DNA of 14,506 bases from a virus. Lineage: Duplodnaviria; Heunggongvirae; Uroviricota; Caudoviricetes. Made by a program: the position numbers and the translations under genes. A model generated the notes under the pieces. The model was not told the origin of the DNA. It ran no database searches and saw only the letters and a list, made by a program, of their open reading frames with translations. Positions 7,614-11,350 of this stretch are shown one piece after another (within the stretch, counting starts at the first letter, position 1; the number at the start of each line of letters is the position of its first letter). The stretch is taken from positions 1 through 14,506 of the IMG/VR virus record IMGVR_UViG_2778261446_000005; one strand, 5' to 3'.

Positions 7614-7637
7614 AAATAAAAAAGGGGCGAAAGCCCC
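7614..7637 (-). terminator. Intrinsic terminator immediately after the c2 stop
   Basis: Minus strand reads GGGGC-TTTC-GCCCC followed by TTTTTATTTCCC. The c2 stop TAA is at 7640..7638. No T-run follows the hairpin on the plus strand. Confidence 0.75.
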
Positions 7638-8288
7638 TTAAGGAAGGTTTGCTAGCTTGGCATCAACGACAACGCCAATGATTTTACAGTTCCCATTGAT
7701 TTCAATCATTGGGTATTGTGGATTGAGTGGTTTCAGGAATTTTCTACCGGCATCAATAACTAACTTTTTGAATGTCGCCTCGTTTTCTCCTTCAAGTTTG
7801 GCGACTACCAGCTTTCCATTACGTGGTTCGACTTCTGGGTCGACGAGAATAATCATCCCCTCAGGAATACTCAGTCCTGCCGGGGCAGTCATTGAATCGC
7901 CTTTAACGTCGAGCCAAAAAGAGTCTTCAGAACAATCTACCGTTGTGTCGTACCAGTTATCTATTGCACGCCTATGATATGGCTCTACAGCTTCCATCCA
8001 ACATCCTGCGCTTACCCAACTAATTAGAGGATACGAACCTCTTGGATCATGCCTGCTGTGATAGGCAATGTTTGAAAGACTATCCTCTCCTTTCAACAGG
8101 TAATCAGGGGAGCACTGCAAAGCCTTGGCTAAGGCCAATAGGTTTTCGCCATTGGGCTCAGTTTCAGATCGCTCCCATTGGGAAATAGCAACATTAGACA
8201 CGCCAACCATCTTGCCAAGGGCAGCCTGCCTAATCTTGAGTTCTTTTCTGCGAGCGCGAATACGCTCACCCATCAGTTGTGTATTCAT
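7638..8288 (-). CDS. c2: Prophage repressor, P22 c2 type (CI-like, HTH plus LexA-like S24 autocleavage domain, 216 aa)
   Basis: Translation MNTQLMGERIRARRKELKIRQAALGKMVGVSNVAISQWERSETEPNGENLLALAKALQCSPDYLL... matches my recollection of P22 C2 almost throughout. C-terminal domain has the G-D-S-M and K-L motifs of RecA-cleavable repressors. Divergently oriented to cro. Confidence 0.9.
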   Translation of the reverse strand: MNTQLMGERIRARRKELKIRQAALGKMVGVSNVAISQWERSETEPNGENLLALAKALQCSPDYLLKGEDSLSNIAYHSRHDPRGSYPLISWVSAGCWMEAVEPYHRRAIDNWYDTTVDCSEDSFWLDVKGDSMTAPAGLSIPEGMIILVDPEVEPRNGKLVVAKLEGENEATFKKLVIDAGRKFLKPLNPQYPMIEINGNCKIIGVVVDAKLANLP

Positions 8289-8360
8289 AGTTAAGACATC
8301 TTAAATAAACTTGACTTAAGATTCCTTTGGTGGATAATTTAAGTGTTCTTTAATTTCGGA
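8289..8360. promoter_or_regulatory. OR operator region with pR (rightward) and pRM (leftward)
   Basis: Three P22-type operator palindromes: AGTTAAGACATCTTAAAT (about 8290..8307), CTTAAGATTCCTTTGG, and ATTTAAGTGTTCTTTAAT (about 8337..8354). pR -35 TTGACT at 8311..8316 and -10 GATAAT at 8333..8338. c2 ATG at 8288 abuts the leftmost operator (leaderless-type arrangement). Confidence 0.7.
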
Positions 8361-8368
8361 GCGAGTCT

Positions 8369-8554
8369 ATGTACAAAAAAGATGTTATTGACCACTTCGG
8401 AACCCAGCGTGCTGTTGCTAAAGCACTAGGCATTAGCGATGCAGCAGTCTCTCAGTGGAAAGAAGTTATCCCAGAGAAAGACGCCTATCGATTGGAAATC
8501 GTTACAGCTGGCGCCCTGAAGTATCAAGAAAGTGCTTACCGCCAAGCGGCATAA
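8369..8554 (+). CDS. cro: Cro repressor, P22 type (61 aa)
   Basis: Translation MYKKDVIDHFGTQRAVAKALGISDAAVSQWKEVIPEKDAYRLEIVTAGALKYQESAYRQAA matches my recollection of P22 Cro. GGAG SD upstream. Confidence 0.85.
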   Translation: MYKKDVIDHFGTQRAVAKALGISDAAVSQWKEVIPEKDAYRLEIVTAGALKYQESAYRQAA

Positions 8555-8669: not shown

Positions 8670-8966
8670 ATGGCACAAGCAAGCTACAGCAAGCCAACAC
8701 AGCGAGAAATTGATCGCGCTGAAACTGATTTACTCATCAACCTGTCAACGCTTACCCAGCGCGGTCTGGCAAAGATGATTGGCTGTCATGAATCGAAGAT
8801 AAGCAGAACGGACTGGAGATTTATTGCTTCGGTTCTGTGTGCTTTCGGAATGGCATCAGACATCAGTCCGATTAGCAGGGCTTTTAAGTATGCGCTTGAT
8901 GGACTCGCAAAGAAAAAATCCCCGGCTGCCACCGAGGATTCTGAGCAAATTGATATGCAATTCTGA
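8670..8966 (+). CDS. cII: CII-like transcriptional activator (98 aa)
   Basis: Same architecture as lambda CII; C-terminus KKKSPAATEDSEQIDMQF resembles lambda KKRPAATERSEQIQMEF. AGGAAA SD upstream. Position between cro/nutR and O. Confidence 0.75.
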   Translation: MAQASYSKPTQREIDRAETDLLINLSTLTQRGLAKMIGCHESKISRTDWRFIASVLCAFGMASDISPISRAFKYALDGLAKKKSPAATEDSEQIDMQF

Positions 8967-8989
8967 GGTCATTACTGGATCAATCCACA
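8908..8989 (-). ncRNA. Candidate oop-like antisense RNA overlapping the 3' end of cII
   Basis: Minus strand has a terminator inside the cII 3' end: TCCTCGG-TGGCA-CCGGGGA (7-bp stem with one G-U pair, pairs only in the minus-strand RNA) followed by TTTTTTCTTT (plus A-run 8912..8918). About 80 nt upstream on the minus strand is a -10-like CATAAT (plus 8996..9001) with a weak -35. Size and position mirror lambda oop. The 5' end is inferred. Confidence 0.45.
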
Positions 8990-8998
8990 GGAGTAATT

Positions 8999-9160
8999 AT
9001 GACAAAACGTCGTAAGAAATACCAGGAAAAAGAAGAGATTCGACACCCTGATTCACCTGAGGGATTAGTGGTAGCCGCAGCAAATAACAGGGCGTTCGCA
9101 GAGCGCCTTGTTGGTGTTTACAGACTAGCCAAAGCAGGAGTGAAACATGGGCGTCGTTAA
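8999..9160 (+). CDS. Small basic ORF between cII and O (53 aa, MTKRRKKYQEKEEIRHPDSPEGL...)
   Basis: Manual translation. AGGAG SD 6 nt upstream of the ATG. Stop overlaps the O start by 14 nt. Below the track cutoff. Confidence 0.35.
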   Translation: MTKRRKKYQEKEEIRHPDSPEGLVVAAANNRAFAERLVGVYRLAKAGVKHGRR

Positions 9161-9977
9161 GTTAGCTGATTACAGGCCTCAACTGGAGGTCGTGGAGCAT
9201 CGCGTGGCAGAACTCGAAGATGGCTACACTCGGACTGCAAACACACTGTTAGAAGCCGCCATGCTTTCTGGACTTACTCTACATCAGTTACTGATTGTTA
9301 TGGCTGTGTGGCGCAAGACATACGGTTACAACAAAAAAATAGATTGGATCGGAAACGAACAGTTCGCTGAACTCACTGGCATGGCACCAACCAAATGCTC
9401 TACCGCCAAAAACGAGCTTATCAGAATGGGAGTTCTCATTCAGGTGGGGCGTCAAGTTGGTATGAATACAAACATTTCCGAGTGGAAAACGAAAGTTAAC
9501 GGATTCGGTAAAACATTTACTAATTCGGTAAAACAAACCTTCACCAAATCGGTAAAAAGCAATTTACCGAATCAGTCAAACACAAAAGACAATATACAAA
9601 AGACAATAAATACAAATACCCCCTTACCCCCTAACGGGGGCGGCGATGGGCAGGTTAAACCTGAACGTCGCAAGGCAGAACGAATCGACTACGAATCCTT
9701 CCTGAACGCCTACAACACCGAAGTCGGTGACAGACTTCCACACGCTGTTGCGGTCAACGAGAAACGCAAACGCCGCCTGAAGAAAATCATCCCGCAACTG
9801 AAAACGCCAAACGTGGACGGTTTCAGAGCGTATGTCAGGGCGTTTGTACATCAGGCCAAGCCGTTTTACTTCGGAGACAACGACACTGGCTGGACGGCAG
9901 ATTTTGATTACCTGCTGAGGGAAGATTCGTTAACGGGAGTACGGGAAGGGAAGTTTGCAGACAGGGGGATTGCATGA
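9147..9977 (+). CDS. Replication initiator, lambda O-like (P22 gene 18 type, 276 aa)
   Basis: N-terminal domain is clearly homologous to lambda O as I recall it ([15 protein letters not shown] vs LDDGYARLSNMLLEA; WRKTYGYNK; NISEW). AGGAG SD. Contains the iteron origin internally. C-terminal domain differs from lambda O, consistent with pairing to a DnaB-type helicase rather than lambda P. Confidence 0.8.
9500..9640 (+). repeat. Replication origin inside the O-like gene: iterons, AT-rich region, GC hairpin
   Basis: Three direct copies of (A/T)TCGGTAAAA(C/A) at about 9503..9514, 9523..9534 and 9548..9559, plus an inverted TTACCGAAT at 9564..9572. AT-rich tract 9577..9620. Then CCCCC-TAAC-GGGGG at 9627..9640. 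Layout parallels lambda ori. Confidence 0.7.
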
Positions 9978-11350
9978 GACAGGATATCGAAGCGAGCGTT
10001 ATCGGTGGCCTGCTGATTGGTGGATTAACTCCAACCGCCAGCGACGTTCTGGCAACGCTGGAGCCGGAAGCGTTTTCAATTCCGCTCTACCGGAAAGCCT
10101 TCGAGGTTATCCGCAAGCAGGCGAGAAACAGAAACCTAATCGATGCGCTGATGGTTGCCGAGGCGTGCGGAGAGGAGCATTTCACGTCAATCCTGATGAC
10201 CAGCAAAAACTGCCCGAGTGCCGCAAACCTGAAGGGATATGCCGGAATGGTCGCGGATAACTATCACCGCCGTCTGGTGCTGGAAATCATAGATGAAATG
10301 CGTGAACCAATCCAAAGCGGAACCATCGACGCATCGAGTCAGGCGATGGATGAACTTGTAAAACGTCTCTCAGCCATCAGAAAACCCCGTGACGAGGTTA
10401 AACCTGTACGGTTAGGGGAAATCATCACCGACTACACTGACACGCTTGACAGGCGTCTGAGGAACGGAGAAGAGTCCGATACCCTGAAGACCGGAATCGA
10501 AGAACTTGATGCCATCACCGGAGGGATGAACGCGGAAGACCTGGTGATAATCGCTGCTCGTCCTGGTATGGGGAAAACCGAACTGGCGCTGAAGATTGCC
10601 GAAGGCGTTGCAAGCCGCGTTATTCCTGGTTCTGACGTCCGGCGCGGGGTATTGATTTTCTCAATGGAAATGAGCGCATTGCAGATTGCAGAGCGAAGCA
10701 TTGCCAACGCCGGGAGGATGTCGGTTAGTGTGCTGCGAAATCCTGCAGCGATGGATGACGAAGGCTGGGCGCGCGTTGCTAACGGCATGAGTCAGCTTGC
10801 AGATTTGGATGTATGGGTAGTCGATGCCTCGCGGTTATCGGTAGAAGAAATTCGCTCAATCGCAGAACGGCACAAACAGGAAAATCCAAACCTGTCACTC
10901 ATCATGGCGGATTATCTTGGCCTGATTGAGAAGCCGAAAGCAGATCGCAACGACCTCGCAATTGCTCACATCTCCGGAAGCCTGAAGGCGATGGCGAAAG
11001 ACCTGAAAACGCCCGTTATCTCCCTGAGTCAGCTTTCGCGCGATGTTGAGAAGCGACCAAACAAACGCCCGACAAACGCAGATTTGCGTGATTCAGGAAG
11101 CATTGAGCAGGACGCAGACTCAATCATCATGCTCTATCGGGAAGCGGTATATGACGAGAACAGTAGCGCCGCGCCATTTGCTGAAATCATCGTGACGAAA
11201 AACCGTTTTGGCTCGCTTGGTACAGTTTACCAGCGGTTCTGTAACGGACACTTTGTTGCATGTGACCAGGATGAAGCCAGACAGATTTGCACAGCATCAA
11301 ATGCACCTGCTGCGCGTGGCAGACGATATGCACAAGGGGCTGACGTATGA
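9974..11350 (+). CDS. DnaB-family replicative helicase (P22 gene 12 type, 458 aa)
   Basis: ATGA overlap with the O-like gene. N-terminal DnaB-like domain; Walker A motif in [15 protein letters not shown]; RecA-like C-terminal domain with the DnaB-type [12 protein letters not shown] and IIMLYRE motifs. Confidence 0.85.

Follow-up and report, generated by a model that had tools for sequence, protein, structure and literature searches.

The oop RNA is a textbook antisense RNA, through which lambda-like phages make less of CII, the regulator of lysogeny, and, to our knowledge, standard gene callers do not mark it. The question raised by the present locus is whether the minus strand across the 3' end of a cII-type gene encodes such an RNA, as had been proposed, from the letters of the DNA, for positions 8908-8989. 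The window, i.e. the whole 14,506-nt stretch of tailed-phage DNA that was analysed, is the early-right region of a lambdoid phage or prophage. Its order of genes encoding a phage repressor of the S24/HTH type (7638-8288, minus strand), a P22-type Cro (P22_Cro; 8369-8554), a CII-type protein, an O-like replication protein (9147-9977) and a DnaB-like helicase (9974-11350) is that of lambda. The best phage matches, namely HK544, CUS-3, mEp213 and Sf101, align with roughly half of the window, at 95-97 % identity, and this partial coverage is typical mosaicism. The cII-type gene, which would be the antisense target, lies on the plus strand at 8670-8966 and encodes 98 aa that match Pfam Phage_CII (E 7e-34) and are 97 % identical to HK75 CII. 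Within its first codons, the minus strand (8679-8692) carries TTGC-N6-TTGC (TTGCTGTAGCTTGC), the CII-binding repeat, as in lambda pRE, which supports the existence of a working CII circuit. Elsewhere in the region, a strong, terminator-like hairpin followed by a T-run (AAGGGGCTTTCGCCCCTT; 7622-7639, minus strand) starts at the repressor stop codon and presumably ends the repressor transcript, and TTGACT-16-GATAAT, on the plus strand at 8311-8338 upstream of cro, is likely to be pR.

Based on the comparisons described below, there is a probability of about 90 % that the feature is the pO-oop-tO unit of a lambdoid phage. The original prediction of an oop-like antisense RNA against the 3' end of cII held in all of the sequence tests, among them homology to lambda oop, the Phage_CII identity of the target and compensatory changes in the terminator stem, and its boundaries prove to be within a few bases of the 8912-8988 arrived at here.

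Homology to lambda oop and the terminator tO

The predicted oop RNA is 77 nt long and extends on the minus strand from 8988 to 8912, an assignment that draws on homology to lambda oop, a covariance model and the RNA fold. When aligned with lambda oop (38675-38599), a comparison that the original prediction had called for, 62 of the 77 positions are identical over the whole length and without indels; side by side, the minus strand of lambda (NC_001416) reads TGTCATAAT gactcct GTTGATAGATCCAGTAATGACCTCAGAACTCCATCTGGATTTGTTCAGAACGCTCGGTTGCCGCCGGGCGTTTTTTA and that of the window reads TGTCATAAT tactcct GTGGATTGATCCAGTAATGACCTCAGAATTGCATATCAATTTGCTCAGAATCCTCGGTGGCAGCCGGGGATTTTTTC. The lambda transcript is 77 nt long, with base 38675 as its 5' end, the -10 element 8-13 nt rightward of that base and 52 bases overlapping cII (PMC5869508); the lambda pO -10 is thus at 38683-38688, over the O ATG at 38686-38688. 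Transferring these positions to the window gives a start at G8988, which is set by homology with lambda 38675, a 3' end at approximately 8912, and an overlap with cII of 52 nt plus the stop codon. Accordingly placed, the predicted 3' end falls past the U6 that ends at 8913 and takes in C8912, and the overlap (8912-8966) is of the same length as in lambda. The 5' end of the P22 RNA, as determined by sRNA-seq (GAUUGAUCC), corresponds to window position 8985. To judge from its sequence, the stretch is homologous to lambda oop, the likeness going beyond a similar layout.

In order to view the locus within a wider set, relatives were taken from three sources: an exact 16-mer scan of IMG/VR, which yielded 119 stretches and 55 distinct 146-nt regions; annotated phages obtained via BLAST; and 15 prophage loci found in GTDB genomes by means of CII protein patterns derived from a 4-sequence alignment, including loci from Pantoea, Mixta, Winslowiella, Pectobacterium, Rosenbergiella, Edwardsiella, Atlantibacter and Pseudescherichia. 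A minus-strand hairpin followed by a T-run is present in the CII tail codons of all 22 diverse relatives that were read by eye. Automatic placement, with the hairpin 59-83 nt after a -10-like hexamer, was correct in 21 of them; in the Atlantibacter locus (L139), the script took an earlier T-run, and the real terminator was assigned by eye. A covariance model built from 11 phages, with the window and its close alleles excluded, matches the window at 8988..8910 on the minus strand with 67.6 bits (E ~1e-10) over model positions 1-70 of 70. This is the sole strong match in the 14.5 kb, the next best (17.4 bits) being the same hairpin on the plus strand. The model also matches directly behind cII in 18 other loci (E <=0.008), from Escherichia, Salmonella, Edwardsiella, Pantoea, Pectobacterium, Mixta and Rosenbergiella. 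Terminator-like sites alone are not above chance, as five were found in 3 kb versus 3.4 +/- 1.8 expected; it is the homology, i.e. the 62/77 identity, the 67.6-bit model match and an exact 33-bp match discussed below, that places the site above chance.

The region is present in 1442 of 5426 complete E. coli genomes. The closest phage allele is that of HK75, which is 95.6 % identical over 8905-8995, and the exact oop allele of the window was found in no phage record. A search of Rfam with the whole window gave no match at the gathering score, and a search with 8700-9200 at a permissive E-value gave chance-level matches only (E >0.3), with no oop-named family, and so is uninformative on oop. Two contigs of 3.5-3.7 kb in MAGs of Oxalobacter and Segatella copri (L133, CAKRSU010000058.1, and L137, JAJXBQ010000280.1) carry an E. 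coli-type lambdoid cII-oop region with 87-95 % CII identity, and are probably mis-binned phage or prophage contigs.

The tO intrinsic terminator occupies 8942-8913 on the minus strand, within cII codons K82-S91, and consists of a 5' arm (8942-8931), a GGCA loop (8930-8927), a 3' arm (8926-8915) and a U-run (8918-8913). By consensus scan, the hairpin at 8942..8915 has 12 pairs, five of which are G-C, before the T-run. The terminator had been described as strand-specific and located in the last codons of cII, with a G-U pairing available only to the minus-strand RNA, and this description is borne out, with three such pairs in the stem: U8935.G8921 in the G+C core, and G8941.U8916 and U8931.G8926 towards the ends, all of which are A.C mismatches in the plus-strand RNA. 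For a 42-nt hairpin segment, the minus-strand RNA folds at -16.5 kcal/mol versus -9.0 for the plus-strand RNA. The full 77-nt minus-strand RNA forms two hairpins, one at the 5' end and the terminator, at -27.2 kcal/mol (z -3.5; 0/200 shuffles as good), versus -15.2 kcal/mol (z -0.3) for the plus-strand RNA of that length. The lambda oop RNA folds into the same two-hairpin architecture at -28.5 kcal/mol (z -4.3). A plus-strand or bidirectional terminator was also considered and ruled out, as the plus-strand RNA folds poorly and lacks a following T-run.

Loss of the hairpin among relatives had been named as an outcome that would count against the original prediction; instead, the hairpin is kept in 16 distinct relatives, with compensatory changes. 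In the 16-sequence terminator alignment, 93 % of cells are paired, and changes on both sides are seen in five of 10 pairs, giving a covariation score of 0.417 versus <=0.128 in slid controls, which pair at <=49 %. Between lambda and the window, two stem pairs have changed on both sides, C-G to U-A and G-C to C-G, and these changes recode cII, turning Arg CGC into Ser84 TCC and Arg CGT into Asp90 GAT (8919-8921 and 8937-8939, respectively). The price of preserving the stem has thus been two replacements in the C-terminal tail of CII, a clear case in which RNA structure constrains the overlapping protein. Close E. coli relatives retain the 5' hairpin, using two alternative registers, whereas in distant relatives it is weak or absent; since it is not conserved in the latter, it was dropped as a feature of the family.

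A LexA-box-like sequence, CTGT-N8-CCAG, spans the predicted start site on the minus strand (8975..8990) and is position-homologous to CTGTTGATAGATCCAG of lambda. The box in the window, CTGTGGATTGATCCAG at 8990-8975, has one mismatch to CTGT-N8-ACAG. With one mismatch allowed, such patterns number five versus 4.5 expected by chance, and so are unenriched; the CTGT-N8-CCAG motif is kept in the P22, Meifeng, Mixta, Winslowiella and Pectobacterium loci. Literature cited in PMC5869508 reports a LexA site within lambda oop-pO.

The putative pO promoter and the gene that it overlaps

The putative pO promoter has the -10 element TGtCATAAT at 9004-8996 on the minus strand, comprising the hexamer CATAAT (9001-8996) and an extended -10 TG (9004-9003). 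A CATAAT approximately 80 nt upstream, overlapping the start codon of the ORF at 8999..9160, was part of the original prediction; more exactly, the hexamer precedes the T-run by 77 nt, and the ATG at 8999-9001 is read from its CAT on the opposite strand. The -10 is identical to that of lambda, and a 7-nt spacer to the G start is common to both. By comparison with lambda and P22, an oop RNA is predicted to be expressed from this promoter. Further upstream, there is a weak -35-like region (9019..9025, minus strand), which contains CCTGG and can be read as TGGTAT with a 17-nt spacer (2/6 matches) or as CTGGTA with an 18-nt spacer (3/6 matches). Because the -35 is poor, pO was not called by a generic sigma-70 promoter scan; the P22 record places the oop -35 (TGGTCA) at an offset equal to that of the -35-like region in the window.

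The -10 hexamer is found in 22/22 distinct promoter-side sequences, which represent ~14 unrelated downstream-gene modules, as CATAAT or, in a few, TATAAT or CATACT, but the search pattern required an NATA[AC]T hexamer and what the count shows is therefore that the hexamer and the terminator occur together, and it is no independent evidence for conservation of the -10. The relatives read by hand agree, apart from POCJ13, which has CAGAAT, and the Atlantibacter locus, which has CATGAT. The conservation of both CAT and the CTCCT that follows is in part imposed by the plus strand, where these letters are the start codon and the ribosome-binding site. However, the AAT of the -10 is kept across unrelated downstream genes and is not forced by the start codon. 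Similarly, 10 of the 14 unrelated downstream genes have NCA (ACA, GCA, CCA or TCA) as their second codon, which keeps the extended -10 TG while the amino acid varies; the four modules without NCA have a -35 matching at 4-5/6 positions (TTTACA, TTGAAA, TTGCTT and TTTACT). In lambda, a pO fragment with 45 nt upstream of +1 is inactive and one with 94 nt is active (PMC5869508), and the sequence upstream of pO in the window belongs to a different gene from that of lambda.

P22 oop and OOP-BTP1 have CCTGGT at the offset upstream of the -10 that it has in the window. As a side observation, the CCTGG of the window (9022-9026, minus strand) lies exactly 21-25 nt upstream of the oop -10, and CCTGG is at that offset also in the loci of P22 (L127), BTP1 (L149), Dewey (L130) and Pantoea (L141) and in a further one (L111), although the intervening 20 nt differ between modules. 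Four non-homologous downstream genes, i.e. ORF53, the P22 orf48 family, a gene for a 214-aa protein and one for an HNH endonuclease, have NCA as codon 2 and, as codon 9, CAG (Gln) within CCAGG. It is conceivable, though in our estimation rather doubtful, that the oop promoter imposes a fixed sequence frame on any gene recombined next to pO and that CCTGG is an undescribed pO regulatory site. Such a site might act as a non-canonical -35, be a CCWGG methylated by Dcm or bind an activator, and it might be related to the inactivity of the minimal -10/-35 fragment of lambda pO. If true, this reading would refine a known system and define no new one.

The ORF whose ATG lies inside the pO -10 (8999-9160, plus strand) encodes 53 aa of the HK97 gp53 family. 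The possibility that ORF53 is spurious was ruled out by its full-length match to phrog_1331 (E 1.4e-37) and by wide annotation of ORFs of this type, e.g. as HK97 gp53, Sf6 gene 42 and epsilon34 gp49. At the DNA level, ORF53 is 100 % identical in HK97, HK75, HK629 and mEp213, and a 162-nt ORF to the left of O has been noted in HK97 and HK022 (PMC3349717). The suggestion that the promoter and this ORF might be mutually exclusive interpretations does not hold, as the lambda pO -10 overlaps the ATG of O and the P22 oop promoter overlaps the start of orf48. P22 orf48 (phrog_1913) is not homologous to ORF53, which means that different genes occupy one slot. In addition, the last 14 nt of ORF53 (9147-9160) are shared with the O-like gene, which starts at 9147; P22 (orf48/gene 18), epsilon34 and HK629 are arranged likewise, and the overlap suggests translational coupling. 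In Edwardsiella phage GF-2 (L124, ~432-473), the ATG under the oop -10 opens no more than a 13-codon mini-ORF (MAKGYLFFNEVFV); the stop of this mini-ORF and the annotated O-like start overlap (GTATGA), suggesting a coupled leader peptide and not a gene.

The oop 5' end, the Shine-Dalgarno sequence, the pO -10 and the ATG all fall in a 33-bp block of high homology (8974..9006) that is an exact match to ACTGGATCaATCcACAGGAGTaATTATGaCAAA, the conserved oop-promoter sequence with which Hayes and co-workers located oop in 21 lambdoid phages (PMC3349717); in shuffles, 0 exact matches to the block are expected. Approximately 90 phage records match only 8974-9008 (35 bp, 97-100 % identical) and have unrelated flanks, and the Sf6 record has a feature described as 'bsq5; boundary sequence' under its match to 8974-9160. 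Together, these short matches and the Sf6 boundary feature indicate that the oop 5' end and pO -10 are also a recombination junction, between modules of cII type and of replication type.

Proposed action of oop and the competing explanations

Based on homology with lambda, host sigma-70 RNA polymerase would start at approximately G8988, using the -10 TGtCATAAT, within which the next rightward gene has its start codon. Leftward transcription would then produce a 77-nt RNA containing a 22-nt spacer followed by the complement of the last 52 coding bases and stop codon of cII, and would be expected to stop at the G+C-rich hairpin and U6 (8942-8913), a position given by the sequence and the fold. 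Given the geometry, oop would be perfectly complementary to, and pair with, the 3' end of the rightward cII message. As the genetics of lambda suggest, cII mRNA, once paired, would be cleaved and decay in an RNase III-dependent manner, and the lower level of CII would shift the lysis-lysogeny decision towards lysis. Also from lambda work, leftward initiation at pO may oppose pR and thereby tune expression of the replication genes, and oop may be linked to the SOS response through the LexA-like box at its start site. The lambda mechanism is described in PMC5869508, PMC12197685 and PMC3985674, and those three papers cite Krinke and Wulff (1987, 1990) for the finding that, in lambda, cII mRNA is cleaved in an RNase III-dependent manner and CII activity is reduced.

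Three other explanations compete with, or qualify, this one. A very unlikely one is that the stretch is a relic or by-product, i.e. that its sequence is kept only for the sake of the CII tail and of the translation signals (ribosome-binding site, start codon) of the gene that follows, with no functional leftward RNA being made, owing to replacement of the -35 and upstream promoter region by recombination. The poor -35, missed by the promoter scan, the constraint that the plus strand places upon CAT and CTCCT, and the need of lambda pO for sequence beyond -45, where the window differs, all fit with a relic. A sequence kept for the plus strand only does not, however, account for stem changes that are compensatory and yet alter CII residues, for G.U pairs that make the stem specific to the minus strand, or for an extended -10 TG that is kept through varying second codons. 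Moreover, P22 and BTP1 express oop even though they are without the upstream sequence of the lambda O gene, and they have CCTGGT at the shared offset. That oop is dispensable for lambda growth (PMC5869508) was counted against the preferred reading.

The view that the unit is chiefly a promoter, with initiation at pO colliding with or dampening pR and so setting replication initiation while the antisense effect on cII is secondary, is unlikely, albeit less so than a relic. In lambda plasmids, inactivation of pO lowers copy number and raises read-through from pR, whereas a raised level of oop RNA has little effect on replication (PMC3985674), and in the window pO is situated just upstream of ORF53 and the O-like gene. 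Nevertheless, such a role would leave unexplained both the conservation of a terminator inside cII and the constant 52-nt overlap with that gene, and oop alone suppresses CII activities in lambda (PMC5869508); the two roles are, in any case, not exclusive. Finally, it is most improbable that the hairpin is a general leftward terminator that shields the cII, cro and repressor region from antisense transcription coming out of the replication genes, with no dedicated small RNA. Although the hairpin is a strong minus-strand terminator, the -10 conserved 59-83 nt upstream of it in 21 of the 22 relatives examined and the discrete 63-77-nt RNAs of lambda and P22 speak for a dedicated transcript.

Significance and comparison with known oop systems

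The locus has little importance beyond its correct annotation. That said, gene callers skip oop and no Rfam family was found, and the reading of raw sequence has therefore recovered a real non-coding gene. The locus also offers a clean worked example of compensatory stem changes that rewrite two residues of an overlapping CII tail, and a curated oop family could be started from the alignments and covariance model.

Among known systems, lambda oop is alike in its 77-nt length, its TGTCATAAT -10 over the start codon of the next gene, its 7-nt spacer and G start, its U6 terminator, its overlap with cII of 52 nt plus the stop codon, its two-hairpin fold and its CTGT-N8-CCAG box over the start site. 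In contrast, the gene under the lambda promoter is O, whereas in the window it is ORF53 (phrog_1331), and the -35 (TTGAGT in lambda) and all upstream sequence differ. The cII gene of the window is of the HK97/HK022 type, its product being 33 % identical to lambda CII. Besides the two stem pairs that have been swapped in a compensatory manner, the 5' hairpin differs in register, with GGAUUGAU pairing with AUCAAUUU.

The P22 record has an oop promoter and an oop terminator annotated at the corresponding position. As in the window, P22 oop and OOP-BTP1 are antisense to the 3' end of c1, the equivalent of cII, and have a -10 that overlaps the ATG of a small ORF preceding an O-like gene; their 5' sequence, GUGGAUUGAUCCAG, is also that of the window. 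On the other hand, their terminator stem sequence and c1 tail are unrelated to those of the window, and the RNA is shorter. Transcripts have been detected for both P22 (63 nt, sRNA-seq) and BTP1 (transcriptomics); coordinates for OOP-BTP1 were not found in the supplements of PMC7067206. OOP is also listed for lambda and Stx phages in reviews, including PMC12197685.

Closest of all are the oop loci of the HK97-, HK75-, HK629-, Nil2- and Stx-type phages, which are annotated as such or listed in PMC3349717. Direct transcript data for these alleles were not found. They share with the window its cII type, its ORF53 module (8974-9160, 100 % identical) and its layout, and differ from it in oop by few bases. 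The HK629 record, in which the repressor, Cro, cII, gp53-like and O genes are laid out as in the window, contains the annotation 'similar to coliphage lambda oop RNA'. The feature is, in other words, already known: it is a slightly divergent allele of the lambda-type oop RNA.
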